Both the position numbers and the translations under genes were made by a program. DNA of 29,926 nt from a virus (Duplodnaviria; Caudoviricetes). The notes below the pieces were generated by a model that saw nothing but the letters and a program-made list of their open reading frames with translations, ran no database searches and had not been told where the DNA came from. Each line of letters begins with the position of its first letter. Within the stretch, counting starts at the first letter, position 1. Where the stretch lies: IMG/VR virus record IMGVR_UViG_3300030389_004227, positions 1 through 29,926 of that record. One strand, given 5' to 3'. This document shows positions 1 to 29,100 of this stretch, piece after piece.

Positions 1-1809
1 GTGCAGCGCCTCAATCTCAAGCAAATCAGCCCCTGCATCATCGGCGTCCTCGCCCGCGTGGCTGGCCTGCACAACGGCGAGTTTGGCATCTTGCTGCGTG
101 TCAAAAGGCCCAACGCGTTTAAACATGAGGACATCTTCCTGCCCGCCTCAAAACTCGTCAGCAAGGCAAAGCTCAAGGAGTCCCTTGGCGAATGGGGCAT
201 CAACATCCTGCCAAGTCGCTCGACCCGCGACACCCGAGAGACGGATTTTTTGTCTTGGTTCATCGACTCGCACAGCACCCGTCTAATCTACAACCTTGGC
301 CGCATTGGCCACGCTCTTGGGCCAAACGAAGAGCCGTGCTTCGCCTTGCCTCATGAAGTCATTGGCCTTGAGAAAACCGCTAGGGTTCTTCGGTCAGATA
401 AAGAGGCTCTCTTGCCACCTGTGCAGAAGTCAGGCTCTCTGGCTGGCTGGCATGACGCGCTGAACCAATTGAAGACAGAGGACGGCCAGGAGCGCCACCA
501 GCTCAGCCTCTTCTTTGTCATGGCTGCCTTGGCTGCGCCATTGCTCCGATACCTCTCCGTTGAGGCCGGGGGATTTCACGCGTACGGCGAAAGCTCTAAG
601 GGTAAGACCCTGGCCGCCAGAGTAGGCGCATCCGCTTGGGGTCCTGTCTATCATGGCAAGGGTGCCGATGACCTCTACTATCAAAAGTGGTACTCGACCA
701 AGAACGGCCTAGAGGGCTTGGCCACTCAGTTCAACGACATCCCGCTGATTCTCGATGAGAGCAAGGAAGCGGCAGATGAAGACGTCGCCGATGCGTGCTA
801 TGTCCTTGCGCACGGCGTGGGTAAGTCCACCATGACAAAGACGCGAGAGCTGCGACGCGCCAAGAAGTGGCAAACCCTGCTTCTGAGCACTGGCGAGCAG
901 AGCATCGACGAGACAATCCGGCGCAGCAAGCGCGACGAGATGGTTGGGCAGCGCGTGAGGATGATCGACATCCAATGCACTGCCAAAGGGATCACGCCTA
1001 CCCTGCCTCAAAAAAGCCTGCGGGAGTTTGGTCGCCTGGTGCGTTTAAACCATGGTCACGCTGGCCCGCTCTTTGTTCGCCACCTGCTGCAAGCACGCCC
1101 GGAAGACCTGAGCGCCCAGTATACCAACATTGCCGAGAAGAGAAGAAAGGGACTTATCGCAAACACGGAGAAGCGCGTTGCCGAACGGTTTGCCATTGTC
1201 GAGCTGGCTGGTGCCCTCGCAAAGGAATGGGGCATCCTCCCGAGCTGGTTTACACCTGAGCAAACAGTCGCCCGCCTTCACTCTCAGTTTTGTCGCGACC
1301 TGAGCGGAACGAACCTAAGTGAGATTGATATCGGCATGGCGCTCGTTCTGGATTACGTTGAGACTCGCCTTGGTCGAGAGATTATTGAGGTGCAAAAAGC
1401 GGCACCCACCACAGGCATGCCCGATCTGCAAGAACAGCAAACACCAAAAGGTCCGCGTGTTGGCTGGCTTGTCTTGCTCGAAGGGCAACCGCCTTCCCTC
1501 TGGCTCCCTGTCCCTGGTCTCAAAAAGATACTCGACGGCCGTCCACACCTGCCTTTTGTCAGAGCCATGAAGGATAAGAATATCTTACTGGTTTCACCAT
1601 CAGCTAAGAACCTAACCAAGCGGCGACCGCAGTTTCGTACCGCAGAGAGCGGCAGCGACCAAGGCAAGTCAATCGATGCAGTCACGTCAGTCGGAAGCCA
1701 GAAAGTCAAGTCCAGTGCACACTACGGATACGAGTTCGACCTGCAAAAAATGTCCCAATACGCAAACGGAGAAATGCCCGAGACTGGTGCAACAAATGCG
1801 GCATCATGA
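1..1809 (+). CDS. DUF927-family P-loop protein (primase-associated helicase/replication protein), probably 5'-truncated
   Basis: Walker A GESSKGKT, Walker B LILDE, and the motifs GFHAYG, STKNGLE, LLSTGE and GQRVRMIDI typical of DUF927/Cch-like helicases; the frame is open from the window edge. Confidence 0.8.
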   Translation: MQRLNLKQISPCIIGVLARVAGLHNGEFGILLRVKRPNAFKHEDIFLPASKLVSKAKLKESLGEWGINILPSRSTRDTRETDFLSWFIDSHSTRLIYNLGRIGHALGPNEEPCFALPHEVIGLEKTARVLRSDKEALLPPVQKSGSLAGWHDALNQLKTEDGQERHQLSLFFVMAALAAPLLRYLSVEAGGFHAYGESSKGKTLAARVGASAWGPVYHGKGADDLYYQKWYSTKNGLEGLATQFNDIPLILDESKEAADEDVADACYVLAHGVGKSTMTKTRELRRAKKWQTLLLSTGEQSIDETIRRSKRDEMVGQRVRMIDIQCTAKGITPTLPQKSLREFGRLVRLNHGHAGPLFVRHLLQARPEDLSAQYTNIAEKRRKGLIANTEKRVAERFAIVELAGALAKEWGILPSWFTPEQTVARLHSQFCRDLSGTNLSEIDIGMALVLDYVETRLGREIIEVQKAAPTTGMPDLQEQQTPKGPRVGWLVLLEGQPPSLWLPVPGLKKILDGRPHLPFVRAMKDKNILLVSPSAKNLTKRRPQFRTAESGSDQGKSIDAVTSVGSQKVKSSAHYGYEFDLQKMSQYANGEMPETGATNAAS

Positions 1810-1972
1810 TTGGTTTTATCCCATGACTGACAACTACACGGTCTTTCTTCGCGGCGAGGCGGCACGACGTCGCATCATGTTTAAACTCAACAAGCTGCCG
1901 CGGGAAGAGGCCCACGCACTTTGGGTAAAGTACGCGCCGGAATCAATGCCTAGTCCTTTTTTAGACACGTAA
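1796..1972 (+). CDS. small hypothetical phage protein (HDWxY-type)
   Basis: MRHHDWFYPMTDNYTVFLRG...LWVKYAP resembles a recurrent small phage protein; overlaps the upstream stop; alternative GTG start at 1787. Confidence 0.55.
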   Translation: MRHHDWFYPMTDNYTVFLRGEAARRRIMFKLNKLPREEAHALWVKYAPESMPSPFLDT

Positions 1973-2027
1973 CCCAGGTAATTTGTCAGGGCCCTGTGTC
2001 ATATTGAGACCTTACAAAGAGGAATGA

Positions 2028-2720
2028 ATGCCACTAACTTCAACAAATAAAAAGAATCAGCGCAAGATAACCGCCGGTCTGTACGGCGAGAGTGCTGCCG
2101 GTAAAACGTCATTGGTAAAAACATGCGCATCGGAAGATGGCGATTTCAGCTCTGTCCTTTTGGCGGATGCGGATAATGGCACCCTGGCGCTGCGAGGTAT
2201 TGATATCCCTGTGTGGAGCATTGAGACCGAAGCCGACGTGACCGACATGCTTGGCTACTTACAGAGTCCAGAGGGCGCTCATGTTCGTTGGGTCTGGTTT
2301 GACTCACTAACCGCTGCCGGTACGATGAAGCTAAACGCCGAGAAGGCCAAAGAGAGCAATCCGATGCGGGCCTACGGCAACACCCAAGACTGGTGTCTTA
2401 GCCTGATCGGGCAGCTCAACAAGCTACCGCAAAACATCGTGTACATCTGTGAGTTGGATAAGGTCACAGATGAGCAGGGTCGCATTTTATTTGGCCCATC
2501 GATGCCAGGGTCAAAGCTTGGCAACAAGCTGCCGTACTACGTCGATTTTATGTTTGCGCTCCAGGTCGTCTCCTCAGAAGACGGCCAGACAGTACGACGT
2601 ATGCAGTGCAACCCATGCGGTCGATGGACCGCCAAGGACCGCTCCGGCATGCTGCCCCAATACCTCGAACAAGACAGAATACACTTTGGCAAAATGGCCC
2701 AAGCGATTCTCAAGAACTAA
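2028..2720 (+). CDS. Sak4-like / AAA_24 ATPase (ssDNA annealing recombinase)
   Basis: LYGESAAGKTS Walker A, WFDSLT Walker B, C-terminal AKDRSG motif; SD GAGG upstream; followed by an SSB gene as is usual for Sak4. Confidence 0.85.
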   Translation: MPLTSTNKKNQRKITAGLYGESAAGKTSLVKTCASEDGDFSSVLLADADNGTLALRGIDIPVWSIETEADVTDMLGYLQSPEGAHVRWVWFDSLTAAGTMKLNAEKAKESNPMRAYGNTQDWCLSLIGQLNKLPQNIVYICELDKVTDEQGRILFGPSMPGSKLGNKLPYYVDFMFALQVVSSEDGQTVRRMQCNPCGRWTAKDRSGMLPQYLEQDRIHFGKMAQAILKN

Positions 2721-2735
2721 CAGGACCTAACCTTA

Positions 2736-3263
2736 ATGATGACTACGTTTAACCGACAAAGCTATGAATCACGCGCACAGACTCCAAGCACTGAGTTTGC
2801 TGCTTTGCCAGAAGGCAGTTACCGAGCAACTGTGACCGGCGGTACTGTTGGCGTTCACGACGCTGGCGATACATTTTGGGAGCTAGAGTTCACAGTTCGA
2901 GACCATCCTGAGTATGCGGGTCGCAAAATTTGGCGCAAGTACCGTTTAAACCACGCAGACGCAAGACAGGCGCAATGGGACAAGAATCGGTTTGGCCAGG
3001 TTTACGAGGCTCTTAATTACCATCACGAAGTGACTCATCCAGAGCAGATGCGTTCTAGCCTGGTCGTTGAGATTGTGCTCGACCAATGGACCAACAACAA
3101 AGGGAAGATTGCCAACAGTGTGAAGTACGTCAACGCTGCAATGCCAAATCCTGCCGCCACCGCTGGCGCCGTCGCTGCAATTGCCAGTGAGTTTCCCGGC
3201 GCTACGGTCGAATGTTCCACCCCGGTAGCTCCTGCTCCAGATGCCCAGGAGATCCCGTGGTGA
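2736..3263 (+). CDS. DUF669-like single-stranded DNA-binding protein
   Basis: LPEGSYRATV...LEFTV...GRKIW OB-fold-like pattern, Ala/Pro-rich linker and acidic-aromatic tail EIPW. Confidence 0.75.
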   Translation: MMTTFNRQSYESRAQTPSTEFAALPEGSYRATVTGGTVGVHDAGDTFWELEFTVRDHPEYAGRKIWRKYRLNHADARQAQWDKNRFGQVYEALNYHHEVTHPEQMRSSLVVEIVLDQWTNNKGKIANSVKYVNAAMPNPAATAGAVAAIASEFPGATVECSTPVAPAPDAQEIPW

Positions 3264-3266
3264 CTT

Positions 3267-3311
3267 GGAGGGGCCTCATCTTCATCCTCTCTTCCGTGCC
3301 GAGGCCCCTCC
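3267..3311 (+). other. intergenic stem-loop with 11-bp perfect stem and 23-nt pyrimidine-rich loop
   Basis: GGAGGGGCCTC (3267-3277) is the exact reverse complement of GAGGCCCCTCC (3301-3311). Confidence 0.7.
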
Positions 3312-3321
3312 CTTTCCTCCG

Positions 3322-4197
3322 ATGAGTATCTTAATTGACAAGATTCGCGCAGCCGTAGAGGCAAGGGCAAAGCAGGAGAAGCGTCGGTATTACATCGGCG
3401 CTTCTTCTGTCGGCGCAGAGTGCGAACGTCAGTGTCTTTTCAACCACGTCCACGCCAGTGATGACAATTACTCAGCCGACACCTTGTTTCGGTTTGAGGA
3501 TGGGCACAGAACCGAGGAACTGATTGCCGAACGCATACGATTGGTCGATGGGGTTGAGCTTTTCACGCACAAGCCTGATGGTTCCCAGTTCGGCTTCTCT
3601 GCTCTCAATGGGCATTTCCGTGGCCACATAGATGGCGTGATTAAAGGACATCCCGAGCTAGATGAGCCAGCGATTTGGGAATGCAAAGCCACAAGTGAAA
3701 AAAACTTTAGAGCGTTTAAACGACTCAAGGAAAAGCGTCGGCATGAAGATGTGCTGTTGAAGTGGAACGAAGTTTATTATGGTCAGGCTATGCTCTACTG
3801 CCATTTCTTTGACCTCGATTACCATTACCTCAGTGTAGCTACGCCTGGCGGTCGTGACCTAGATGACCTCATCACACCAGCCAACGGCGCGTATGCGACC
3901 AGCCTGATCGACAAGGCAAAGAGTATTCTTAAGAACCCGGAGCTACCGCCGCGCATCAGCGCAGATCCCAAGTTTTTCAAATGCGCGTGGTGTGCCCATC
4001 ATCGCCTTTGCCATCGGCAAAGTGGCGACTCCGATCCGATTCAGTACGTCAATCGAAACTGTCGAACGTGCAAATTCGCCGAGCCCATCATGGATGGAGA
4101 AGATGGTGGCTGGCGATGCGCGACTCACAACGTCGAGCTGACTGAGCAAGGTCAGTCCGAAGGGTGTGAGTTATGGGTCAACGCATGGCTAAATTGA
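3322..4197 (+). CDS. Cas4-like PD-(D/E)XK exonuclease with Cys cluster and extra C-terminal Cys/His finger
   Basis: IGASSVGAECERQ, GHIDG, WECK, QAMLY, CAWC...C, then CRTC...WRC..H...C; start chosen at ATG 3322 downstream of the hairpin. Confidence 0.8.
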   Translation: MSILIDKIRAAVEARAKQEKRRYYIGASSVGAECERQCLFNHVHASDDNYSADTLFRFEDGHRTEELIAERIRLVDGVELFTHKPDGSQFGFSALNGHFRGHIDGVIKGHPELDEPAIWECKATSEKNFRAFKRLKEKRRHEDVLLKWNEVYYGQAMLYCHFFDLDYHYLSVATPGGRDLDDLITPANGAYATSLIDKAKSILKNPELPPRISADPKFFKCAWCAHHRLCHRQSGDSDPIQYVNRNCRTCKFAEPIMDGEDGGWRCATHNVELTEQGQSEGCELWVNAWLN

Positions 4198-4685
4198 AGA
4201 AGCCAGACAGACCAGAAAGGGTGATACTCGTGGCTGATTTGTGGACACCGCTGGGTTTTCTCCAGGCCCAAAAACCAAAGCGGCGCAGGAAAAAGAGCTC
4301 GATACCAACAGAGGCCCAAGAGCAGACCCGCGTTGTCGGTGCGCTGCGCACTGAGGGGGTGCCCGTCTTTGCTGTGCCCAACAATCCCCGAGGCAAAATT
4401 CACGGCGCTCAACTAAAACGCCAAGGGCTATCTGCTGGTGTCCCTGATCTCATCCTGCCCAAGCCCTCGCCCAAGTATAAAGTACCTACAGCTATCGAAA
4501 TGAAGCGGGTCAAGGGTGGTCGAGTATCTGACAATCAAAAGAAGTGGCATCGTATCCTTGGCCGCGATTGCAACTGGAAGGTCTACGTCTGCAACGGAGC
4601 AGAGGAGGCTTTTGAGATTTTGCGAATGCTTGGCTACCTACCCAAAACGAGTCCCAAGCCGAAAGGAAAAGGCGACAAAAAGTGA
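4185..4685 (+). CDS. VRR-NUC domain nuclease (Holliday junction resolvase-like)
   Basis: AVPN...LKRQGLSAGVPDL...IEMKR..GGRVSDNQKKW. Confidence 0.85.
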   Translation: MAKLKKPDRPERVILVADLWTPLGFLQAQKPKRRRKKSSIPTEAQEQTRVVGALRTEGVPVFAVPNNPRGKIHGAQLKRQGLSAGVPDLILPKPSPKYKVPTAIEMKRVKGGRVSDNQKKWHRILGRDCNWKVYVCNGAEEAFEILRMLGYLPKTSPKPKGKGDKK

Positions 4686-4754: not shown

Positions 4755-4765
4755 GCGTTTAAACA

Positions 4766-4969
4766 ATGGCACCGATGCGATCTTGCCTGGTGTGCGACCA
4801 TATCTATAGAGGATGCCTAGAGTGCCCGGAGTGCGGCAACCTAACGGGCGAGCCGTTACTTGGTCGCGAGGCGGCGCAGCAGCAAGCTGACATCAAGGCT
4901 GCCAGCGTTATTGACTTCGGTGTTGGAGACATCACCAGCGACGAGATAGAGAACCGTTGGCCCAGCTGA
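4766..4969 (+). CDS. small zinc-ribbon protein
   Basis: CLVC...CPECG; weak SD GGGG; 3' end overlaps the convergent gene by 114 nt. Confidence 0.5.
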   Translation: MAPMRSCLVCDHIYRGCLECPECGNLTGEPLLGREAAQQQADIKAASVIDFGVGDITSDEIENRWPS

Positions 4970-5443
4970 CTGGTAGGGTACGGCAGCGCTGTCGATTGTA
5001 CACTGACCGCTGATTGAGCTGGCGGTGATTACCTCTTCATCGATGATGACACTTACCTGCGTGATTGTGTTGGCGTCGATGACCCCAAGCCGAACGTCAA
5101 AGGTTGGGTCAGAGCCAGAGCTGTGCTGATTATCTGTACAGAGCCAAGTAGCGTTTACACACTCCCAGTCTGTCTGTGTCGATGGTGTCCCTGGTAGCGG
5201 ATGAATATCAAGCACTGAGGCGCCGCTGATGGTTGCGTTTGTTGCGGTTAGGTTCACAATGACAAACTCATAGAAGCCATCAACATAGGCCTTAGTCGTC
5301 GCGTCAGTGCCAGCCGTTGGGGTGGCAATGTTTTGCAGTCGCTGAGACTTTCCATCGAGCGGCCCTTGAATGGTGCCAAGAGAGCGCACGCCTTCGACTT
5401 CGATTACCGCACGCTCGTATATCTCATCCCCTGGCTTAATCAT
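4856..5443 (-). CDS. hypothetical virion/fibre-like protein with YadA/HIM-type neck motif
   Basis: RLQNIATPTAGTDATTKAYVD followed by a beta-rich domain; ATG 5443 overlaps the upstream stop (ATGATTAA). Confidence 0.6.
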   Translation of the reverse strand: MIKPGDEIYERAVIEVEGVRSLGTIQGPLDGKSQRLQNIATPTAGTDATTKAYVDGFYEFVIVNLTATNATISGASVLDIHPLPGTPSTQTDWECVNATWLCTDNQHSSGSDPTFDVRLGVIDANTITQVSVIIDEEVITASSISGQCTIDSAAVPYQSAGPTVLYLVAGDVSNTEVNNAGSLDVSLLLRRLATK

Positions 5444-5900
5444 GGTGCAGCCGACCCCAGCCAAAGTGACGATCTGCCCAGCGAGCTGCTTTACGCCCTT
5501 GGAGGCCACGCACGTCCACGTGCACGAAGCTCGGGTAGAGGCCTAGGCCAAGGCTTATCGGCCGACCAAAACTCTCTAAAGCCATGTATAAGCGACACAT
5601 ATTCAAAGGGTTTCGGAGCCCGGCATTTGAGTAGGTAACATCCGCAGCGAAGCCAATCCTGTCGGCGACCTTACCCTTAAGCGGGTAGCCGAGGTGCAGG
5701 CTAGTAGAAACGCCACCCACGGCCAGGTTGTGATTGTCGCAGCGCACGCCGCTGTTGATACGCAGCGGCACGCCAAGGTGCTCCCGAGCCTTATCGAGCA
5801 CCTTGACAAGCTCCGGCTTTACTTTGTCCATTGAGCAACGCCCGCAACTGCAAGCGAACTCCGAAGGACGAAAGTATTTACCTGGCCAACCCTTGCTCAT
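5436..5900 (-). CDS. peptidase M15A-like endolysin
   Basis: YFRPSEFAC.CG.C, INSGVRC..HN..VGG...SLH, AAD, FVHVDVR. Confidence 0.85.
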   Translation of the reverse strand: MSKGWPGKYFRPSEFACSCGRCSMDKVKPELVKVLDKAREHLGVPLRINSGVRCDNHNLAVGGVSTSLHLGYPLKGKVADRIGFAADVTYSNAGLRNPLNMCRLYMALESFGRPISLGLGLYPSFVHVDVRGLQGRKAARWADRHFGWGRLHHD

Positions 5901-6007
5901 TTTGGCTTTTTCTTTGGCTTCATCTTCTTAGGCTTTACCTTCTTGGGCATCTTGTTTTTGCCCTTTGCCGCCTTCTTCGAGCCCTTCATAGAACCATAGT
6001 TTATCAT
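5897..6007 (-). CDS. 36-aa Lys-rich microprotein (not in the ORF track)
   Basis: MINYGSMKGSKKAAKGKNKMPKKVKPKKMKPKKKPK, 16/36 Lys; AGGA upstream; stop overlaps the endolysin start (ATGA). Confidence 0.6.
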   Translation of the reverse strand: MINYGSMKGSKKAAKGKNKMPKKVKPKKMKPKKKPK

Positions 6008-6596
6008 CTCGGTAATTCCTTGCTGTGTTGCTAAAGTAAATCTCCTCACAAGCCTCAAAGTCCGGTGGTCCCGAAACTTTGGTTAAGCTGTGATCTGTCC
6101 ACAAAATGCGGTTATTTGGCATTGAGCAGTATTGCCCGCTGCCATCGTCGAGCTGCAAAATATTCTGGCTCTTGTGCTGTTCTGGCACTGACGCACAAGT
6201 TGGCATCAGGGCGCCATCAGCATCAGCCTGGTCGACGGTGCAGACGTAGCAGCCGTTTACCAGCTCGTCGTTGATCTTCACCCTTGCGTCCAGGTGACGA
6301 AGGCCGTCCTTCACAATCGTGGTAATGTGCCAGGCATCAATATCCCAAAGCGCAAGATCGGCTTGCTTGTGTCGACAATCACCATCGCGGTCGTGCACGA
6401 ATGCTTCGATTGGGAGCTTATCGTAAAGCGCGCCGTTCTCTAAAAGCGTCTCGAAAAGCAAAGCCCTATGCTTCTGCGCTTTTACGCTGATCCAATAGCC
6501 GCGCATGAACTCACCGTGGCCTTGCTTCTGATTGTACAGAAATTCTTTGCGAACCCAGACGGGTTCCAGAGGTAGATTGGCTACCAGAAAACTCAT
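5928..6596 (-). CDS. conserved hypothetical phage protein
   Basis: LVANLP...VRKEFLY...GHGEF..GYWISVK...GALYDKLPI...EQHK...PNNR resembles a family I recall from aquatic phages; ATGA-coupled to the upstream gene. Confidence 0.75.
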   Translation of the reverse strand: MSFLVANLPLEPVWVRKEFLYNQKQGHGEFMRGYWISVKAQKHRALLFETLLENGALYDKLPIEAFVHDRDGDCRHKQADLALWDIDAWHITTIVKDGLRHLDARVKINDELVNGCYVCTVDQADADGALMPTCASVPEQHKSQNILQLDDGSGQYCSMPNNRILWTDHSLTKVSGPPDFEACEEIYFSNTARNYRDDKLWFYEGLEEGGKGQKQDAQEGKA

Positions 6597-6835
6597 CGTT
6601 TTTTACCTTTGTGCAGCCCGTGGCGAGCGTGCTGTTTGCCAGCTTTCGTTGCGGCGCGTTTTTTCCGATTTGCAGCTGCCAACTTTTTCCGACCGGCCGG
6701 AGTGCTCTTCAGCTTTTTAATCGTGGCAGCTGGCGCGTACACCTCGCCGGTCTCCGACGACTTCTTGCCCGACGGGGTTCGCCACTTTTGGCTGCCCCAG
6801 CGCTTGAGGCTTCTTTGCGATTTCTTCAACGCCAT
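6593..6835 (-). CDS. basic small protein, DUF5872-like C-terminal half
   Basis: MALKKSQRSLKRWGSQKWRTPSGKKS..TGEVYAP; TAATG overlap with the upstream gene. Confidence 0.7.
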   Translation of the reverse strand: MALKKSQRSLKRWGSQKWRTPSGKKSSETGEVYAPAATIKKLKSTPAGRKKLAAANRKKRAATKAGKQHARHGLHKGKKR

Positions 6836-7026
6836 TAGCTTTTGTACCCGCCACCGGCAGCCTTGTACTGCTTGGCAAGCATTTGCGCTTTCCGTGCCGA
6901 CCACTGACCAGGCTTGCCGCCTTTGCCACCTGCTTTTATCTTGTTAAAAAGACGCTTTCGCATTGCTGGCTTAGTGTAGTTGCCTGCCTCGTTCACCCGG
7001 CTCTTCGGCTTTTTTTTGACCGCCAT
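6835..7026 (-). CDS. basic small protein, DUF5872-like N-terminal half
   Basis: YTKP.MRKRL...KGGKPGQWSARKAQMLAKQYKAAGGGY; SD GAGGAG; TGATG overlap. Confidence 0.75.
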   Translation of the reverse strand: MAVKKKPKSRVNEAGNYTKPAMRKRLFNKIKAGGKGGKPGQWSARKAQMLAKQYKAAGGGYKS

Positions 7027-7286
7027 CACTTTCTCCTCGATTTTGCGCCCACGCACTTCCAACGCTTGCGTGATAAATTGTTGGGCGTGTTAGGGTCGTT
7101 CTGCTTCTTCTTGCTGAGGCGTTTCTTGATGCCGAGGCTGCGAGCGCAATAGCTGTCGGCCTTGGAGGTCCCTGGCTTGACACGCGGCCCGCCGTCTTTG
7201 GCTCTGCCTGCCTGACCGTAAGACACGCGCTTTGTGCCTCGCTTTGTCTTAACGACTTTGACCTTGGCTTTACCCTTCGCAGGCAT
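7026..7286 (-). CDS. basic small protein (SYCARS...KRWKC motif, possibly DUF6321-related)
   Basis: Lys/Arg-rich; YGQAG...SYCARS...DPNTPNNLSRKRWKC; SD GGAGG; TGATG overlap. Confidence 0.7.
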   Translation of the reverse strand: MPAKGKAKVKVVKTKRGTKRVSYGQAGRAKDGGPRVKPGTSKADSYCARSLGIKKRLSKKKQNDPNTPNNLSRKRWKCVGAKSRRK

Positions 7287-7540
7287 CAAAACCTCCAACG
7301 CAGGCCAGCAGTAGCCGACCAGTTTAAACGCTCGTCGAGCTGTAGCGCTCCCGACGCGAACCCGGTGAGGTTGCCAGTGAGTTTTCCAGCCATCTCTGCA
7401 ACGGCTTCGGCGCGAACTGCATCGCTGCCAGTGCCCCGAGCACGTAACCCGAGGTGGCCAACAAAATGGTCTTGTCCCAGAGCGAGCGCTGCTTTTTGCG
7501 CCGGTTCATTCAACTCTCCTCTGAGCCCGATGGCTTTCCC
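7286..7540 (-). CDS. putative -1 frameshift extension of the holin-like protein (4 beta-strands, C-terminal beta-signal)
   Basis: Open -1 frame entered at GGGAAAG (7540-7534); ends WSATAGLRWRF; its stop overlaps the next gene's ATG; lacks a well-spaced start of its own. Confidence 0.6.
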   Translation of the reverse strand, partial: GKAIGLRGELNEPAQKAALALGQDHFVGHLGLRARGTGSDAVRAEAVAEMAGKLTGNLTGFASGALQLDERLNWSATAGLRWRF

Positions 7541-7761
7541 ATCTTCGCCACCTCTTGCAGTCCCTGGCTGGAGACCAAGGCTTTTTTGACAGCTGCGCGG
7601 GAGGCGGCGTAAGCGGTTGGCGAGACCATAGCGATGAGACCACACAAGCCCTGCACTACTTGGTTGTCGGAAAAAACTGCACCGACGGCGCCCATGATGA
7701 GCGCGGCACAGCAGAGTAAGAACTCGGATGACTTGACGCCTTTGGTTTGTCCTTGCAACAT
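7510..7761 (-). CDS. holin-like 2-TM membrane protein
   Basis: KGVKSSEF motif, two hydrophobic segments, YAASRAAVK basic tail; SD GGAGG; located in the lysis region. Confidence 0.7.
   Translation of the reverse strand: MLQGQTKGVKSSEFLLCCAALIMGAVGAVFSDNQVVQGLCGLIAMVSPTAYAASRAAVKKALVSSQGLQEVAKMGKPSGSEES
7534..7540 (-). promoter_or_regulatory. candidate programmed -1 frameshift site G GGA AAG
   Basis: X XXY YYZ heptamer in the correct phase, identical to the lambda G-T slip site; SD-like GAGGTG 8 nt upstream. Confidence 0.65.
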
Positions 7762-7762
7762 C

Positions 7763-8062: not shown

Positions 8063-8063
8063 G

Positions 8064-8312: not shown

Positions 8313-8321
8313 TTGAAAATC

Positions 8322-9895: not shown

Positions 9896-9906
9896 CGTGT
9901 GTTCTC

Positions 9907-16236: not shown

Positions 16237-16238
16237 GG

Positions 16239-21368: not shown

Positions 21369-22060
21369 TAGACGAAGAACATCTCGTCCACACCGATAGA
21401 GACGTCGCGGACGGCATAGGTTGGGTCGCCAGCATTGCGGTAAGTCGCTGCGGTCTCGATGCGCTCCTTTAGTTCACGCTTTTGCGCCAGGTGAACACGC
21501 ACGTCTGACTCTTCTTTTTGCAGGCAATTAATAGCTGCGCAGATTACTGCATACTCCTCATAGCCATTTGGGATATTTGCCAAGGTGTCTTCTGTTTGCG
21601 TCGTTGACAGCTTTTGAGCTTCGGGCACGTAGAAGAGCGTAGCGGTGCCGCTGGTGCTCGGCTTCGGGATGAACTTTAGCTTACTGCCTTGGACGTGGTA
21701 ACGCGGCGTGGCGACAATGCCAGTGTTGTAAAACAGGTTGTTGTACATATTACGCTCGCCGAAATGGTAGCTGCGAAGGTTGACCACGGTCGTGCTTAGA
21801 CTGTTCGTTTGGTAGTCGACACCTAGCACCTTGTAGAAGTCACTAGGCAGGTCAAACTCGTTATCTACCCCGCCAACTAGCTCAAACTCTGCTGACTTAA
21901 GACTGTAGTCTTCGTACTTGGTCACCAGGATGTCGTGTAGTTCAGCGATGCCATTGTTGAGATAGTCAGTCACCTCGACGTCGGTGACGAAGGTGCTACC
22001 CACCATATCGGCGCGTCGTCGGACCCTAGCAATCAAGTCGGTTTTCGCAAAGGACCCCAT
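21368..22060 (-). CDS. head-tail adaptor protein
   Basis: LIARVRRRADM...FVTD.E..DYLN, LPSDF, FIPKP; SD AAGGAG; position after the capsid gene. Confidence 0.7.
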   Translation of the reverse strand: MGSFAKTDLIARVRRRADMVGSTFVTDVEVTDYLNNGIAELHDILVTKYEDYSLKSAEFELVGGVDNEFDLPSDFYKVLGVDYQTNSLSTTVVNLRSYHFGERNMYNNLFYNTGIVATPRYHVQGSKLKFIPKPSTSGTATLFYVPEAQKLSTTQTEDTLANIPNGYEEYAVICAAINCLQKEESDVRVHLAQKRELKERIETAATYRNAGDPTYAVRDVSIGVDEMFFV

Positions 22061-22074
22061 GTGCCACGCTCCTT

Positions 22075-22108
22075 AAAAAAGCAGGGGGGCATCGCCTCCC
22101 CCCTGCTT
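22075..22108 (-). terminator. rho-independent terminator after the capsid region
   Basis: 11-bp perfect stem (22079-22089 / 22098-22108), 8-nt loop, U-tract on the minus strand. Confidence 0.8.
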
Positions 22109-22109
22109 C

Positions 22110-22322
22110 TCACTCAACCTCGCCACCATCTAAGTTTGCTGAGTGAATTGTAAAAAAGTCTTGCAGGGCTGCAATGCCCGCGCCTTTGTCGTCGGCTTGG
22201 ATGGCTTGTGCCAGTGCATCAAAAGCTGCAACGAGGCCCGGATGATGACCCTCACCTTCGCCCAATTGCTTTCTTTCTCGTGCCTGCTTCACGATGGAAG
22301 ACGCCAAGCTTGATAAATCCAT
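22110..22322 (-). CDS. small hypothetical protein
   Basis: 70-aa helical ORF between the capsid gene and the terminator; AGGA SD. Confidence 0.6.
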   Translation of the reverse strand: MDLSSLASSIVKQARERKQLGEGEGHHPGLVAAFDALAQAIQADDKGAGIAALQDFFTIHSANLDGGEVE

Positions 22323-22399
22323 AACGCAAATCCTAGATAATAATGGTGGTGGATGGGCCCCGGCGATACGTCCACCGAGACCCCGAGGTTAGCTAAGTG

Positions 22400-23767
22400 T
22401 TAGTCTAGGACAATGCGGCAGTTAGCCGACGGGCGGCTACATCCAAGTTGTCCATAAAATCCCATTCTGAGACTTAGACTGTCACTTGACGCATCCCGCA
22501 ACATCTTCAGCCCGTCAAGGCTAAGGATGTGTGGAGCTTCACCAAGTGAGTACAGCTTCCAGGTGTTCATCTGGAGCAGGAAGACGTCATCAGCAGGGCA
22601 ATCAGGATCTGCCAAGAGGGTAATATCCCCTGTTGGAGTCTTGAAGTTGATGCCATCAAAGCCAATTGATGGAACATCGCCAGCTGTAATGCGGTATGGC
22701 CGCTCATTGGATGAGCCCTTCGCGGTCAACTCTTTAGTTAGCTGAACGAAGGTCTTGTAAGAGCAGATAGCAACATCAGGGCTTCCGCCTTCTCGTCCGA
22801 GAATAGCAGAGGCATCGATAAGGCTGTCATGCACGTTGCTCTTATCACCATCTACGAAGAGGCCAGCCAAGCGTGTGCGATCAACGCTTCGGTTTACACC
22901 GAAGAAGTTATCGCTAGCACTCACTGTAGAAGGCAGCCATCGCTGAAGGCCGGAGATTCGCACAAGAGCGTTGCCCTGCGCGGCGTCACCACTTGGTACG
23001 ACAAAGTCATCAGCAGCAGTACTGCCGACGATGCTGTCTACTGTGACGTTACCAAAAACACGGTCGACCTTTGTTACAACCATGGAGCCAGAGCGGAGAG
23101 CGCCATCAGCGTTTGTACCGCCGTTGGTGACAACAAGTTTCTGACCCACCTCGAAGTGCACAATGTCTTCGACGTTTTCAGTCTGAAAGGTGTTGTTATC
23201 TGCAAGCGCTGGTCCACGACGGTTAGTGCTGAAGCCTGTGCCGACACCCAAAATCTTGCAGAGCTTACCAGTTCCATCGCCAAAAACTGCTCGGCAAAGC
23301 GAGCGCTTCATGGCGTAGATAGCTCCGTCCACTTCCATGGTAAGGAAGTCTAGGAAGCTGCCTGCGTTGCCACGCGTGGCCAGGATTGCTTCCGCGTCTA
23401 ATTGCGCGTGGGCATAGTCCCGGACCCTCGTCAAATGGAATGCCTTAACACCAGCGCTGCTGGTTTGGCCCTGTGAATCAGTGAAGCTTTGCGAGCGCCG
23501 CTGATTGGTGGCGAACTGGATAGGTTGAACCATGTATGGTCCACCAAACGACGTAGTGTCCTTTGGCAGGAGCGCATAGAAGGGATTGTTCTCGTACATC
23601 ACTGCGCGAATTCGCTCAGGGGTGTAGATTTCCTTCAGCGCACCTTCGACCGTCTCAAGCGCGACTGCGCCCGCTGCGGTGTTGGTTGCGTAGGTTTTGG
23701 TATACTGGACTTCCGAATCGTTAAAGCCGGTATTATTGGCTCCGGCGGCCGCTGGTGATACAGGCAT
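22400..23767 (-). CDS. major capsid protein
   Basis: 455 aa following portal and scaffold; LKEIY...NNPFYALL, GLQRW...FFGVNRS, G.LGC..P..N C-terminus. Confidence 0.85.
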   Translation of the reverse strand: MPVSPAAAGANNTGFNDSEVQYTKTYATNTAAGAVALETVEGALKEIYTPERIRAVMYENNPFYALLPKDTTSFGGPYMVQPIQFATNQRRSQSFTDSQGQTSSAGVKAFHLTRVRDYAHAQLDAEAILATRGNAGSFLDFLTMEVDGAIYAMKRSLCRAVFGDGTGKLCKILGVGTGFSTNRRGPALADNNTFQTENVEDIVHFEVGQKLVVTNGGTNADGALRSGSMVVTKVDRVFGNVTVDSIVGSTAADDFVVPSGDAAQGNALVRISGLQRWLPSTVSASDNFFGVNRSVDRTRLAGLFVDGDKSNVHDSLIDASAILGREGGSPDVAICSYKTFVQLTKELTAKGSSNERPYRITAGDVPSIGFDGINFKTPTGDITLLADPDCPADDVFLLQMNTWKLYSLGEAPHILSLDGLKMLRDASSDSLSLRMGFYGQLGCSRPSANCRIVLD

Positions 23768-23780
23768 AGCCTCTCATTCC

Positions 23781-24653
23781 TTACTCCGGTGCATTAAAGC
23801 GCAGAAGGGCGGCTGCCCGTTTCTTGGCCTCATCCATCGGTAAAATACCCTCAGACTTCACCGTTCTGGTTGCCTGCTGGTCGTTTGTGAGTGTCTGTAG
23901 CCTTCCCCGGTACGGGGCTTGTGCTTGGCGGCTAGCCTTTGCCTGCGCTTCTTCGAGTTCTTTTCTGATTTGGTCAGATAACTCGCTTCGTACTTTTTTG
24001 CCCAGCTTGCTACTCTGTAAGTAGCTCTGCCCTTCTTTGAGCAATTCCTGCTCTACAAGCTTGGCAGCTTCCTGAACCGGCAATTCTTCACCGGTCTCTT
24101 TATGGTACTCACTGATAACCTCAACAACTGCATGATAAGCATCGCGAACTTTTATCAGCTCATACTCGTGACTATTATCTACGTAATTTTTTACACCGTC
24201 AACGAATTCATTATACAGGCGTTGATACTTAGCCTCTTCCTGCTCTGCTGTGCGGCTGGCCTGCTGCTGCCGCATTTGCTCAAGCTCCTGACGAAGTTTT
24301 ACGACTTCACGGCGTGACTCTTCTTCGACCGGCAACTGGCCCTGATTTACCTCATCGGTAAGAACGTCTTTAAGTGACACACCTGCGCGCTTAAGAAACT
24401 CTGTGGGGTTGCTGCGAGCAAGGTCGAAAACCTTTTCATATTTTGCAACCTTTTCCTCGAGTTCTTTGCTTTGCACCTTTTGCTGGCGATACACCTTTTC
24501 TTTTTGCGCAAGTTTTGCAAATTGACGGTGAAGCGGAGACTCAGCCTGTTGCTCGGGGGAAGCCGGATTAGGCTGAATCTCCTTCTCAGGCTGTGGGGAT
24601 GCCTGATCTTCGTTTTGAATGGCTTGGGGTGCTTCGGTATTGGTGGCTTCCAT
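23781..24653 (-). CDS. capsid scaffolding protein
   Basis: Acidic/Pro N-terminus, coiled coil, TLTN motif and short basic C-terminal helix; between portal and capsid. Confidence 0.75.
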   Translation of the reverse strand: MEATNTEAPQAIQNEDQASPQPEKEIQPNPASPEQQAESPLHRQFAKLAQKEKVYRQQKVQSKELEEKVAKYEKVFDLARSNPTEFLKRAGVSLKDVLTDEVNQGQLPVEEESRREVVKLRQELEQMRQQQASRTAEQEEAKYQRLYNEFVDGVKNYVDNSHEYELIKVRDAYHAVVEVISEYHKETGEELPVQEAAKLVEQELLKEGQSYLQSSKLGKKVRSELSDQIRKELEEAQAKASRQAQAPYRGRLQTLTNDQQATRTVKSEGILPMDEAKKRAAALLRFNAPE

Positions 24654-24666
24654 TGTGTTCTCCTGG

Positions 24667-26538
24667 TTACATCATTGGGGGCAGAGCTGGCTGCTCTACT
24701 GGTGTTACTGGCTCTTCAGCCATGAGTTGTGGTGGCATACCTGCCGGAGTAGCGCCGGAGGGGCCTTGAGACCCTTGCGCCATCTGGTTTTGTATTTCTG
24801 GAGGGGCAAATGGGCTTTGTAGCTTGGTCTGAAGCAGCGCTGCCGACTCTTCCAAAAACCTACGCAGTAAATCCAAGCGCTCCTCGGGTGCCCCTTGTGT
24901 TTTGGCCAGCAAGTAGGCCGAGTTTACCATCTCTAGAGCCATAGGAATGTTCATCATCGGCTCTGGGACGTGGTAATTGCCCCGCTCAAGCATTTCTTCG
25001 ATAAGAAGCTGAATATCCTTGTAGGCAGCGGTTGCGAGGTTGTTGACGCTCTCCAGATCAGGATAATCGAGCAAAACAAGCGCTTGCCGCTTATCGAGGA
25101 GGCCACCTTGTAGCATCTCAATGGTCCGCTGAAGTTTTGCCGCTGGGGTAGCCGGTAGAAGGTTGGTTGGGTACACCTTCATCACGTACATGTCCTCAGC
25201 TAGGTCAATTTCGGACCATTTGATTTTCTCAATCTCTTTATCGCCATGAGAGATAACCTCTGTATCCTCACCATCGGCGTGGAGGTCCCTTGCGAGGTCA
25301 ATCATGAGCTTACCGGCATCGAGATACGCCTGCTCGTAGCGCTGGGCCAAAAGCATAAAGCGCTCGGTGGTGATATCGTTAAACTCACGCAGAGCAACGC
25401 CACTCTCAAGGCCAGCTGGCTTGCGGCTGGTCGCATCGAGCATTGAGACGCCAGCAATCTCGTAGGCACGGTTGTAGAGCCTGTCGATGTGCTGAACAAC
25501 GTCAGGGCTTACTGTGCGAGGTACGTAGAAGGTAGGCGGCGTGCCTGTGTAGTTGATGACACCCCACACCTCGTTAGACAGCTGCATCTTTGAGACTTGC
25601 GAGCCCATTTCTACCAATATCTTGGGCTTGGCGAGGTGTTGTTGTTCCTGAATTGCACGCAGTAGCCGATTAAGTTCGATCTGGATGCCAGTGAGTTGCT
25701 CGATGAGTCCACTGCCATAGTAGCCAAGGAGTTTCTCTTGGTAGCGCAGCGTCACAAACGGAAAGTGGGTCTTGGTATACAGCTCGTCGAGCAAGACCAA
25801 GCCATCTACCGCAATGACGTGTCGTCCTTCACCACCCTTAACGGTCGGCAAGTGCCAGGCCTCGATGACTTCGAGCTGGGGCGGCAAGTTGCGCCGGTCC
25901 TCAAGGGCCTCTGCGTGCTCCACACGGTCAAGCTGTTCTGCGAGGTGGGGATAGAGCCCCTTGAGAGTTTCGAGCGAGATGTATTTACGCTGATACAAGG
26001 TTTGCGGTCTTGCATACATAGATTCAGAGTCATCACATAGAATTTCAGAGGGCAGTACGCGTTCACAAGCGATGCCTTTCTGAGAGCAGTGAAAAACCTT
26101 GAGAAAGCCCGTACCAAAAATGAGAGCATCCATCACCACCTTGGGCATCACCGCGTAGATATCGGTGTGGTAAAACTGGCCAAAGACAAACCGGTCGAGC
26201 CGTCGCGCTTTGCGCTGCTGGGTAAAGTCGCCACCAGAAGTCAGGAAGGTAGCTTTCGGTCTGTTTTTGCAGAGCTTGGCCGCAACGGTGTCGCACATAG
26301 ACGCGCAGATATTCATCGTTACGCGGTGCATGTTTGCCCTACTTACCTGGCGTGCATAGCCGCGTAAGCTCAGGTCTCGCGTGTAGGCATTACCGTAGAG
26401 GCGTGCATGCGTTAAATCTTCGGCAGCGCGGTACGCTTGATGCTCGTCGATTGCGCGGACGTGGGAGAAGATGCCTTCGTCAATATTGTTATCTCGTAAC
26501 CACCAGTGGGGCGAAAAGTGCATCATCGTGCTGCTCAT
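24667..26538 (-). CDS. portal protein
   Basis: 623 aa after TerL; NIC...K...P, DALIFGTGF.K, FPFV...YG.G....L..IQ.ELN, SGVAL; Pro/Gln tail. Confidence 0.88.
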   Translation of the reverse strand: MSSTMMHFSPHWWLRDNNIDEGIFSHVRAIDEHQAYRAAEDLTHARLYGNAYTRDLSLRGYARQVSRANMHRVTMNICASMCDTVAAKLCKNRPKATFLTSGGDFTQQRKARRLDRFVFGQFYHTDIYAVMPKVVMDALIFGTGFLKVFHCSQKGIACERVLPSEILCDDSESMYARPQTLYQRKYISLETLKGLYPHLAEQLDRVEHAEALEDRRNLPPQLEVIEAWHLPTVKGGEGRHVIAVDGLVLLDELYTKTHFPFVTLRYQEKLLGYYGSGLIEQLTGIQIELNRLLRAIQEQQHLAKPKILVEMGSQVSKMQLSNEVWGVINYTGTPPTFYVPRTVSPDVVQHIDRLYNRAYEIAGVSMLDATSRKPAGLESGVALREFNDITTERFMLLAQRYEQAYLDAGKLMIDLARDLHADGEDTEVISHGDKEIEKIKWSEIDLAEDMYVMKVYPTNLLPATPAAKLQRTIEMLQGGLLDKRQALVLLDYPDLESVNNLATAAYKDIQLLIEEMLERGNYHVPEPMMNIPMALEMVNSAYLLAKTQGAPEERLDLLRRFLEESAALLQTKLQSPFAPPEIQNQMAQGSQGPSGATPAGMPPQLMAEEPVTPVEQPALPPMM

Positions 26539-26548
26539 GACCTAACTC

Positions 26549-26758
26549 CTAAGTCACGCTGTAGAAGAGGTCGTCTTCCAGCGTAATTTCTTGCTCTTCA
26601 ATCGATGGTGGCTGTGCGGACGCTGGTAGCTCGACGCTAGGACTGGTTTCAGGGCCCAGCTTTATGCGGAGATCGTCAAAGGTAAATTCAACGACTCCCT
26701 TGCCCTTCAACAGGTCGAGAAGTGACGTAAGTCTCTCCAAATCAATATCATCGAACAT
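26549..26758 (-). CDS. small hypothetical protein between TerL and portal
   Basis: LLDLLK.KGV..F.....I.L; acidic tail ending LFYS. Confidence 0.65.
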   Translation of the reverse strand: MFDDIDLERLTSLLDLLKGKGVVEFTFDDLRIKLGPETSPSVELPASAQPPSIEEQEITLEDDLFYSVT

Positions 26759-26767
26759 GCAAAACTC

Positions 26768-28234
26768 TCAATTGAGACTGATGGCGTTTTCGAACCATGG
26801 AATCTCTTCGGTGTTAGAAATCTTTTCTTGGAGTGCGTCCCAATACCGGTCCATCTGATACTGCTCGTATTCTGGGGTACCAGGCTTGGGTCCTTCGTTA
26901 AGCGGCTCGTAGCACCAGTGCTTAGCTTCTCGCCATCCGTACAAAACGGCATCGGCGCAGTGGTTAGGGAAGCGGTCGTCTTCTTTTTGCCGGGTCTCAT
27001 GCCATTGGAGTAAGTCCCACTCGCTTAGAAGCTGGGTGCAAGAGCGGTCTACCTTGAGGCGGCCGGTACGCAGGTCATCCTGGAGCATCTCGATAAACGC
27101 GTTTTTGCGTTTCTTCTCTGCTGGCTTGATGGGCAGACCCTTGCGCTGTTTAAACTCCTCGGCCAGGTTTTTACCCGCGCCAGCCGTGTCCATCACCATC
27201 TGGACATAGCCATACTCTTCATTGAGCTGGCGGATGGTGTCAGCGATATCGCTGGGCAGCATTTTGACCTGCTTGAAACAGTCGACGACGTAGACCTCGG
27301 GATGGTGGCGACTAAAGCCAATGGTGGCGAAGGCTGTAGCGTCGTGCCAGCCGATGTCGACCGCCAAGATATATTCCAGGTCCCGGTCATCGGGGATGTG
27401 GTCGATCAGGTTCTCATCTTGGTATCGGTAGATAAGAGAGTCATCGGAGCGCACCCACTTGCCACACCACTCGCGCAGGTAGACCGGATTGTTCTCGTCC
27501 CAACCGCGCAGTTTCATCCTCTTCTCTAGCCAAGGGCGAGCATCGGGGACGTATGGATTATCGAGGATAGTCCAGTGATGGACTGACCAGTCTGGTCGCA
27601 GGCCGGTCGTAGCTTCGTGGAACAGGCCGCTGCACGAGGCTGTAGGTGTTCCGATTAAAACCAGGCTGCCCTGCACGTCGACAAGGCCTGGCTCGATGAC
27701 CTCCTCCACCAGCTCGACAATGTGGCCCGCAAAGGAGCCAGCTTCATCCAGGACAACTAACCGGTATGATAGGCCTCGGAGCCGGTCGATATCGCCTTCG
27801 TCGGAAGCTCCGGTGAGGATTATCTGACTGCCGTTTGGAAACCAGCACTCTAAGTTGGTGTTGTAGAACTTGGCCCCTAGGGCGTAGTTCCGGTTGGCCT
27901 GCTTCAGCATCGACCAAAGGATTCGCCGCGCACTCGTTCTTGTTAAGGCGATGTAAGCAACGACGGAGTTTGGATATAAAAGACATTCGCGAATCATATA
28001 GAAGGCCGTCGCCGTGGTTTTGCCAGCTCGGCGTGAACACACAGCGGCCTTCAAGGGTGAAGGGTCGTCCAAAAACGCCCGTTGCTCAGGGAAGAGATTA
28101 TCCATGAACCGGAAGGTTCGGGGGTTTATCTCGCCATGGTCTTGGGTCAGCTCTTGGTAGTCGCCAAAACGGCGCACGTATTCCTGGAGGACCTTGCGGC
28201 CGTCCAGGCTCTTGGGCTTCTTATTGCGCGACAC
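26768..28234 (-). CDS. terL: terminase large subunit
   Basis: Walker A CSRRAGKT, Walker B VVLDEA, motif C IGTP, RNase H-like AVDIG and NHCADA. Confidence 0.93.
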   Translation of the reverse strand: MSRNKKPKSLDGRKVLQEYVRRFGDYQELTQDHGEINPRTFRFMDNLFPEQRAFLDDPSPLKAAVCSRRAGKTTATAFYMIRECLLYPNSVVAYIALTRTSARRILWSMLKQANRNYALGAKFYNTNLECWFPNGSQIILTGASDEGDIDRLRGLSYRLVVLDEAGSFAGHIVELVEEVIEPGLVDVQGSLVLIGTPTASCSGLFHEATTGLRPDWSVHHWTILDNPYVPDARPWLEKRMKLRGWDENNPVYLREWCGKWVRSDDSLIYRYQDENLIDHIPDDRDLEYILAVDIGWHDATAFATIGFSRHHPEVYVVDCFKQVKMLPSDIADTIRQLNEEYGYVQMVMDTAGAGKNLAEEFKQRKGLPIKPAEKKRKNAFIEMLQDDLRTGRLKVDRSCTQLLSEWDLLQWHETRQKEDDRFPNHCADAVLYGWREAKHWCYEPLNEGPKPGTPEYEQYQMDRYWDALQEKISNTEEIPWFENAISLN

Positions 28235-28490
28235 CTGCCTGTACCTTCTTTGGTGGCCGTCCTCGACGGCGGGCCGGTGGCTTGGCTGGCTTTGGTTCAG
28301 TCACAATAGCGCGCATGTGGCTGATCGACGACATCGGAACGAAGTGGCTGCTGGTATCGTCTTCCGTTTGTACCCACACGCCGTTGCGCTCCTCGTCGAG
28401 CTTGAGGAGGAATCCCTGATTGCGCTTTAGCGTGGTCTTGAAGTAGACGGGCATGGTGTTGCCGGTCAGGACAATCTCGTCGATTTCCAT
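28221..28490 (-). CDS. hypothetical protein with C-terminal AT-hook-like RGRP
   Basis: Small beta domain followed by RRRGRPPKK; SD GAGG; overlaps the TerL start. Confidence 0.65.
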   Translation of the reverse strand: MEIDEIVLTGNTMPVYFKTTLKRNQGFLLKLDEERNGVWVQTEDDTSSHFVPMSSISHMRAIVTEPKPAKPPARRRGRPPKKVQAGVAQ

Positions 28491-28491
28491 T

Positions 28492-29100
28492 TTATTGGTC
28501 CTCTAGTGGTGGGAGCCCGTTGAAGGTTCGCCATTGTTTTCGATAGTCGTTTAAACCGCCTGGCTGGAGCAGGAACGGCGCGTAGTACAGCCGCCAGTTT
28601 TTCTCCTTGCGCAGTTCTCTCGCCAAGTAGCTCTTGTGGGAGTGCACCAGGATTTGGCGCTTATTGAATCCAAAGCCAAGGTTGAGGAGGGTCTTGGTAA
28701 TCCCAAGGCATCGAAATGGTTGTTTGCAAAAGGCGTAATGAATCGCCAGAAACTCAGGGGTTTGAACACCACACACCCAAGCGAAGACCTGATCCGAATC
28801 GTCCTCATGGCAAGCGATGAGGGTGACGGCTTCCTCCATGCAGCGTTTCACAATGGGACGGTGCAGGTCGTAGACCTCAAACTTGGCTTGGTTCTTATTG
28901 GCGGCGGCGTTGGAGCGCAGCCAGTCGGAGTACACCATCGGGGCATCTGCCTGGACGGCAGGCCGGATGCGGATGGGGAGCCGGTCCTTGGCGCTCTCGT
29001 TTTGGTTATAGTGACCGGCCGACTCTTTGACGCCCTCATCGTGGTAGCGCACAGAGCCTCCCTTGGTCATGTAGCCGAGTTCTCGCCTTAAATCATCCAT
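28492..29100 (-). CDS. GNAT-family acetyltransferase
   Basis: IRIRPAVQAD N-terminal motif and IHYAFCKQPFRCLGITKTLL motif A-like segment; start could be 29070. Confidence 0.7.
   Translation of the reverse strand: MDDLRRELGYMTKGGSVRYHDEGVKESAGHYNQNESAKDRLPIRIRPAVQADAPMVYSDWLRSNAAANKNQAKFEVYDLHRPIVKRCMEEAVTLIACHEDDSDQVFAWVCGVQTPEFLAIHYAFCKQPFRCLGITKTLLNLGFGFNKRQILVHSHKSYLARELRKEKNWRLYYAPFLLQPGGLNDYRKQWRTFNGLPPLEDQ

Follow-up and report, generated by a model that had tools for sequence, protein, structure and literature searches.

The stretch of DNA analysed here (the window; 29,926 nucleotides, positions 1 to 29,926 of the IMG/VR record IMGVR_UViG_3300030389_004227) is a podovirus-like phage contig that begins within a primase gene and is estimated to be 74% complete. 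It carries 16 exact copies of the palindrome GTTTAAAC and four copies of the one-letter variant GTGTAAAC. The enrichment of the palindrome is genuine, a signal at the level of the DNA. There is about an even chance that the 20 positions are sites for a phage-encoded SprT-like/zinc-ribbon protein, which would be encoded in the unsequenced quarter of the genome and would serve as a genome-wide repressor. The parts of this reading differ in strength. Judging from the sequence associations, the ribbon of the SprT-like protein very probably binds the word, and the phage probably encodes the SprT-like gene itself; repression, by operators at promoters and roadblocks within genes, is somewhat favoured over other uses of a DNA-docked protein. 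The reader gene is predicted to lie in the missing ~10 kb because the window shares its flanking bases and its GTGTAAAC fingerprint with loci that bear the gene.

Enrichment and placement of the word

An exhaustive search of the window returned the 16 copies of GTTTAAAC listed in the initial annotation, all exact and none missed. The expectation of about 0.3 copies given there agrees with the mean of 0.32 (maximum 2) in 100 dinucleotide shuffles and with 0.35 under an order-2 Markov model. GTTTAAAC is the top-ranking 8-mer of the window, with a density of 0.53 per kb and an excess of about 46-fold. A C on the left or a G on the right accompanies 13 of the 16 copies and three copies are the full CGTTTAAACG, both counts as first reported; the flanking bases C/T/A/G number 16/9/4/3, a pyrimidine flank. 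The observation that nearly all copies are genic and lie in two codon phases was reproduced: 15 of 16 are inside open reading frames (ORFs), eight phased xxG-TTT-AAA-Cxx and seven phased xGT-TTA-AAC. The site at 4757 is the sole intergenic copy, and an ATG begins 1 base further on. Shuffling synonymous codons gave 0.74 in-gene copies (maximum 5 of 2000 shuffles) and a codon-pair-preserving shuffle gave 1.8 (maximum 7 of 2000), versus 15 present, so that the excess outlasts both nulls and amino-acid bias is insufficient to explain it, as had been argued. The encoded peptides permit the word at 18 positions and 15 of these are occupied by it; such positions are themselves mildly in excess (18 vs 10.9 in shuffled proteins, P 0.025). 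The one-letter neighbours of GTTTAAAC are not depleted overall (9 vs 9.0). Of its one-letter variants only GTGTAAAC is enriched in the window; the 4 copies, two in each orientation, compare with 0.53, 0.46 and 0.79 expected from three nulls (P ≤0.004). The exact and variant sites thus amount to 16 + 4 in 74% of the genome, and 19 of the 20 lie in ORFs.

The sites follow no fixed period and show only a deficit of short gaps. The smallest gap between exact copies is 665 bases, and gaps below 655 bases are absent where 4.45 are expected (P 0.002), a deficit equalled by 1 of 67 control words. Site density peaks in the replication arm, with 6 of the 16 copies within the first 5 kb (P 0.04); the recurrence every 0.77-1.07 kb noted there corresponds to gaps of 926, 836, 1065, 770 and 1043 bases. 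The largest gap between exact sites (6.1 kb) contains the variant GTTTACAC at 22892. Even spacing of GTTTAAAC or GTGTAAAC was found in phages Percival (P 0.0008), Pan1 (P 0.004) and R5C (P 0.03) and in a Magnetospira plasmid (P 0.02).

The word was not shared with the relatives of the phage. From 569 viral loci the best 80 (terminase identity 45-53%) served as terminase relatives; they hold 6 copies of GTTTAAAC in 788 kb vs 12.9 expected, and GTGTAAAC is not enriched in them either (14 vs 15.1). The records of five of these relatives are 90-100% complete, contain one GTTTAAAC in total and yielded no SprT-like gene. Because the 80 relatives lack the excess, it was gained in the window's own lineage. 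Distant terminase relatives also occur in five genome bins, which are not proven hosts and contain 0-19 copies vs 33-74 for a reversed control word. Other 8-mers are locally enriched in five terminase relatives (L029, L036, L037, L046 and L078), for example GTCCTGAA (8 vs 0.17) and CAAACACC (11 vs 0.4); these are possibly tandem repeats.

Association with a SprT-like zinc-ribbon gene

A scan for close pairs of GTTTAAAC returned 124 loci, 45 of which span no more than about 640 bases; 24 of the 124 were word-rich and represent 22 distinct contigs. A regular expression for HExxH plus two CxxC motifs gave no match; clustering revealed a SprT-like zinc-ribbon protein as the protein family most widely shared by the word-rich loci. 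A profile seeded from 10 of the word-rich loci matched 18 of the 24 and one further locus, L107 (GTTTAAAC 4 vs 0.08), with nothing else below E 0.1. Five of the six word-rich loci without a match were searched as whole records, and the gene was present in both complete records and in none of the three fragments. In the reverse direction, all 80 viral loci with the SprT-like protein, forming 23 clusters at 75% identity, were enriched for GTTTAAAC.

As an independent sample, 12 of 164 cultured-phage records and 4 of 74 plasmid records were selected. GTTTAAAC or GTGTAAAC occurs in 10 of the 12 phages. It is strong in Microdon (43 GTGTAAAC), Lizalica (24 GTGTAAAC), R5C (17), Pan1 (16), Percival (14+2, the variant copies being 8 and 6 by orientation) and 4A (7 in the slice examined), and weak in MQ-4 (6+1), ECO1230-10 (5), Persinger (4) and F_TK1718 (2 vs 0.03 in a slice). 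CN1 and Armstrong have a degenerate ribbon and 0 copies. GTGTAAAC is the main word in the actinophages. Three of the four plasmids carry the word (Magnetospira, 18 vs 0.4; the others, 4 vs 0.04 and 3 vs 0.06), and a marine bacterium is among those with the family on a plasmid. Carriers of the word or variant span actinobacterial, alphaproteobacterial and gammaproteobacterial hosts. The flanking C/T/A/G counts of the gene-bearing loci are 310/234/64/50, vs 16/9/4/3 in the window, and GTGTAAAC is their top one-letter variant (48 vs 7.9). A site lies 18-81 bases ahead of the SprT-like gene in six cultured phages and in the Magnetospira plasmid, where 11 of the 18 sites are not wholly in annotated genes though only 22% of the sequence is non-coding. 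These positions give the pattern of an autoregulated repressor.

The ribbon would be the reading part of the protein, because the word stays where HExxH has been lost or the ribbon alone is kept: several word-rich phages lack HExxH or have only a ribbon of ~60 amino acids. The protein is predicted to fold as a zincin, with abylysin (4JIU) and human SPRTN (6MDW/6MDX) as the closest matches at Z 7.8, a value within the common-fold range; the root-mean-square deviations are 3.3 and 3.1 over 98 and 93 residues for SPRTN and abylysin, respectively. The C-terminal ribbon falls outside these fold matches, and its look-alikes in the Atlas all scored <0.9. Pfam SprT-like is matched by 6 of 14 family members. 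Among known proteins, the nearest comparisons are SPRTN/Wss1 and the SprT-like protease gp46 of Lizalica, found in the Cluster AZ/EH/EB actinophages. SPRTN is not known to recognise DNA by its sequence. Lizalica gp46 belongs to the same family as the candidate reader and has HExxH and a predicted C-terminal DNA-binding domain; unlike in those actinophages, the SprT-like gene is not in the window. In a preprint (bioRxiv 10.1101/2025.05.26.655371), the Cluster AZ homologue, Lizalica gp46, is among the repressor candidates, and a phage with a truncated copy forms clear plaques while a near-twin, differing in three other respects as well, forms turbid ones. The same source predicts a SPRTN-like function, and its main text names no binding site ('TAAAC' occurs 0 times).

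Several further observations concern the gene and its surroundings. The word occurs within 13 of the 23 representative SprT-like genes (L262, L215, L261, L270 and others), in seven of them at offset 397-406. On two sphingomonad plasmids (L307 and L308) a ParA-type ATPase gene follows immediately downstream of the SprT-like gene, which adjoins the replication gene. A complete 63-kb phage record (L304) has six DnaA-box-like words of the TTATCCAC type near its SprT-like gene. A Pseudomonas viciae plasmid (L309) has the ribbon sequence QSKR in place of Q[ST]TR; it lacks GTTTAAAC, carries CGTGTACA (14 vs 0.59) and has GTGTACAC upstream of its SprT-like gene, a change of ribbon and word that is possibly a specificity switch.

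The phage genome and related contigs

The sites and principal features of the window are listed in Table 1. The six metagenome runs containing half or more of the window's words are all marine, and one of them is possibly its source; runs with small shares of the words (X14-X22) were left aside. Family scans of the window proteins gave no methyltransferase, repressor or integrase match, and no methyltransferase motif was found either. Among cultured relatives the best terminase match has about 24% identity, the capsid has none, and primase and exonuclease matches are only distant. Nine genome-bin contigs with terminase relatives of 32-48% (three Myxococcota, one Acidiferrobacteraceae and others) contain 0 GTTTAAAC and did not identify a host.

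Table 1. Word sites and other features of the window. L081 and L303 are independently assembled contigs related to it.
Feature	Position	Strand	Remarks
GTTTAAAC	117..124		in DUF927 primase/helicase gene, Ala-Phe-Lys-His; present in L081
GTTTAAAC	1043..1050		in primase/helicase gene, Arg-Leu-Asn; present in L081
Variant GTTTACAC (= GTGTAAAC)	1248..1255		absent in L081
GTTTAAAC	1879..1886		in 98-amino-acid ORF 1676-1972, Met-Phe-Lys-Leu; present in L081
GTTTAAAC	2944..2951		in SSB-like gene, Arg-Leu-Asn; absent in L081 (Arg-Phe-Asn, diverged patch)
CGTTTAAACG core	3714..3721		in Cas4-domain exonuclease gene; present in L081
Intergenic GTTTAAAC	4757..4764		between sigma-70-like match 4703-4732 and ATG of ORF 4766-4969; present in L081
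Variant GTTTACAC	5153..5160		present in L081
GTTTAAAC	7322..7329		end of ORF 7286-7645 (Arg-Leu-Asn) or stop codon of ORF 7324-7509; present in L081
CGTTTAAACG core	10703..10710		in 1178-amino-acid virion-region gene
CGTTTAAACG core	12234..12241		in 1178-amino-acid gene
GTTTAAAC	13071..13078		in 1178-amino-acid gene
GTTTAAAC	14146..14153		in VanY-like peptidase gene
GTTTAAAC	18038..18045		near end of 1117-amino-acid internal-virion-like gene
Variant GTGTAAAC	18839..18846		
GTTTAAAC	20379..20386		in 1117-amino-acid gene
GTTTAAAC	21044..21051		in 1117-amino-acid gene
Variant GTTTACAC	22892..22899		in capsid gene
GTTTAAAC	27148..27155		in terminase large subunit, Glu-Phe-Lys-Gln; peptide in 4 of 46 aligned terminases
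GTTTAAAC	28549..28556		in 202-amino-acid ORF 28492-29100; present in L303
Replication/recombination arm	1..4685	+	DUF927 primase, Sak4-like, SSB-like, Cas4-domain exonuclease, VRR-NUC
Zinc-ribbon ORF, 67 amino acids	4766..4969	+	directly after site 4757
Late arm	4856..29602	-	terminase, portal/head-tail connector, SU10-like capsid and adaptor, virion proteins, M15 endolysin
Ribbon-helix-helix (RHH)-like ORF, 63 amino acids	29717..29908	-	weak TacA1 similarity, E 0.005, below family cut-off

Contig L081 is 94.3% identical to the window and retains GTTTAAAC in frame at six of seven sites; L303 retains it, also in frame, at the one site that it shares (28549). The only extensions recovered beyond the window are 387 bases on the left from L081 and 275 non-coding bases on the right from L302. 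The sigma-70-like promoter match ahead of the intergenic site is at chance level (1 found vs 0.8 expected). At 7322 two overlapping minus-strand ORFs compete over the site, the shorter encoding 61 amino acids, and the handful of changes seen in L081 slightly favours the Arg-Leu-Asn frame over the TAA stop.

The region 2600-3000 has 9-14 differences per 100 bases to L081, among them the loss of the site at 2944 and substitutions in the SSB-like protein, and may be a recombined allele. Positions 1-293 of L302 are non-coding, extend beyond the right end of the window, and contain several short palindromes and repeated GGGCCC with no GTTTAAAC; they are possibly a genome end, an origin or a control region. 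Three small Lys/Arg-rich ORFs in 6593-7298 have close relatives in unrelated viral contigs (L143 and L156), and a depth spike covers this region in all four runs examined. GATC is strongly avoided in the window (44 vs 133 expected, ratio 0.33; 0.09-0.74 in six terminase relatives), as are several six-base palindromes, which is ordinary restriction-site avoidance alongside the enriched GTTTAAAC.

Proposed function and alternative explanations

Under the preferred reading, the zinc ribbon would dock on GTTTAAAC dispersed over the phage genome; since the site is a palindrome, the protein would be expected to bind as a dimer. Sites at promoters would serve as operators, including one for autoregulation of the reader gene, and sites within genes would act as transcription roadblocks in the manner of stoperators; the even tiling of the sites that remain would suit roadblocks inside transcription units. 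More speculatively, the protease domain may be a switch that frees the sites by self-cleavage or by cleavage of a partner.

Dispersed repressor sites have precedents. KorB of the IncP-1 plasmid RK2 is an autoregulated global repressor of the ParB family, with 13-base palindromic operators evenly spread over promoters and genes. No ParB-family protein was found here, and the likeness would lie in dispersed palindromes with autoregulation. The stoperators of Cluster A mycobacteriophages (L5, Bxb1) are described (PMC6550527) as 20-30 repressor-site copies genome-wide, some at promoters and most not; they are 13-base, asymmetric and oriented with transcription, their sequence varies with the repressor, and sites occur at the repressor locus. 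The window resembles these phages in its 16 + 4 dispersed sites, most of them outside promoters, and differs in that its word is an 8-10-base palindrome, mostly in genes and with variants in both orientations, and that the candidate reader is a metalloprotease-zinc-ribbon protein, also found on plasmids and in integrase-free phages. No family match to a repressor or integrase was obtained within the 74% of the genome sequenced. The comparison suggests that what is new relative to known dispersed repressor sites is the reader family. No paper on GTTTAAAC as a phage or plasmid signal was found in the literature covered, subscription journals and supplements being outside that coverage.

The initial annotation had proposed a HIP1-like signal such as a protein-binding site, a modification target or a repair-driven motif. 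Protein binding is the option favoured by the evidence, and the likeness to HIP1 is one of resemblance only. HIP1 (GCGATCGC) is defined (PMC5861425) as an octamer palindrome at >0.2 per kb and >16-fold enriched, lying in and between genes with non-random spacing. GTTTAAAC exceeds both values (16 in 29.9 kb vs 0.35). It differs from HIP1 in sequence, the HIP1 core CGATCG having 0 copies in the window vs 12 expected; and unlike HIP1, which is phylum-wide on cyanobacterial chromosomes, it is found on scattered phages and plasmids, in step with a single mobile gene and not with a methyltransferase. Modification and repair found no support. As a restriction-modification target GTTTAAAC would be the PmeI site; it is enriched in the window, not avoided, and no methyltransferase was found in the 74% sequenced.

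A number of results weigh against a repressor encoded by the phage itself. The profile search did not find the SprT-like gene in the window, L081 or L302, and none of the scans with the terminase, the primase, the primase N-terminus, ORF 28492 or the RHH-like ORF recovered a contig that spans the missing ~10 kb. Four word-rich fragments gave no match for the gene (three searched whole, 18-31% complete; L143 as a slice only). The 80 gene-bearing loci are related, at 50-100% identity to the query; several lie on contigs that also belong to the pattern set, and the profile was built from 10 of them. The fourth plasmid with the gene has 0 GTTTAAAC and a two-letter variant instead, and the single occurrence of the family in 352 bacterial genomes searched is on a 1.7-kb contig with 0 GTTTAAAC. 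A second variant, ATTTAAAC, is enriched in the lake set (53 vs 10.3) and absent from the window. In the lake phages a site lies ≤400 bases upstream of the gene in 6 of 23 representatives, which matches the local density, and the loci with the gene show no clear short-gap deficit. The short-gap threshold of 655 was picked after inspection, and the coefficient of variation of the window gaps is ordinary (P 0.27). Retention in L081 is not above background, 68% of all 8-base windows being unchanged. In the window, 15 of the 16 sites are mid-gene, away from starts. Lysogeny would not be the general purpose, because plasmids carry the system, no tyrosine integrase (PF00589) was found in the five complete relatives, and none was found in the window.

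The main alternative, possible if rather doubtful, is that the same reader has another job. The word would then be a self-address, with a DNA-activated protease docked at intervals on the element's own DNA. The docked protease would remove or block host proteins (silencers, translocating restriction or SMC-type defence machines, stalled adducts) or organise the DNA. This would account for the even tiling and the in-gene placement, for the presence of the system on plasmids and in phages that have no known lysogenic switch, for the predicted protease fold nearest human SPRTN and abylysin, and for the poverty of candidate host genomes in GTTTAAAC. Against it, the word persists in several phages without HExxH, and the sites just ahead of the gene in seven cultured elements, together with the plasmid sites not wholly in genes, fit operators. 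Tentatively, such a self-address might be a portable one-gene system of address and reader, in which acquisition of the SprT/zinc-ribbon gene leads to tiling of the whole genome with an 8-base tag, even bending protein sequence; the marine podovirus lineage of the window might then be a recent independent acquisition beside word-free relatives.

Alternatives that place the reader elsewhere fare less well. Reading by a family member in trans (on a host plasmid, prophage or helper), or survival of the sites as relics of a lost gene, is unlikely. The failure to find the gene in the 74% sequenced, the loss of one site in the 94% identical L081 and the family member on the plasmid of a marine bacterium are in its favour, but near-saturation (15 of 18) speaks against decay, the family was rare in the bacterial genomes searched, and both complete word-rich records checked carry the gene in cis. 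Improbable, too, is a host process that makes or selects the word as for HIP1, through a methyltransferase target or biased repair. HIP1-level density is consistent with it, directed mutation could yield saturation, and conservation in L081 does not exceed background; however, the terminase relatives lack the word, the five bins are depleted, and the word marks elements across three bacterial host groups only where the ribbon is intact. The undepleted one-letter neighbours and the lack of a methyltransferase match or motif in the window also count against it. Another protein of the window is a similarly improbable reader. The RHH-like ORF 29717-29908 and the zinc-ribbon ORF 4766-4969 are both small and plausibly DNA-binding, the former has no homologue in word-free relatives, and a site stands 1 base before the start of the latter. 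Yet the 293 bases that precede the RHH-like ORF contain no site, neither ORF was found in word-rich loci, and the shared flank and variant fingerprint would be a coincidence; the zinc-ribbon ORF was judged an unlikely reader, being outside the SprT-ribbon family (probability 4%) and having a homologue in the word-free L012. Codon or codon-pair bias or an assembly artefact is exceedingly improbable: the codon-pair null lifts the in-gene expectation from 0.7 to 1.8, but this stays far from the 15 copies present, which occupy two reading phases. The sites recur in frame in the independently assembled L081 and L303, and no joints at GTTTAAAC sites were seen over 1-15000 in four other runs, among the matches listed, so that coincidence with assembly junctions, raised at the outset, did not materialise.

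The window adds an independent marine lineage, in which the usable positions are near-saturated vs 80 word-poor relatives, and a prediction for the missing 10 kb. If the repressor reading is true, a widespread phage and plasmid gene whose present labels are 'SprT-like protease' and 'transcription elongation protein' would gain a function and a binding site. The reading would also provide a candidate for the missing immunity repressor of the Cluster AZ phages, and a SPRTN-like protease would be a sequence-specific regulator.

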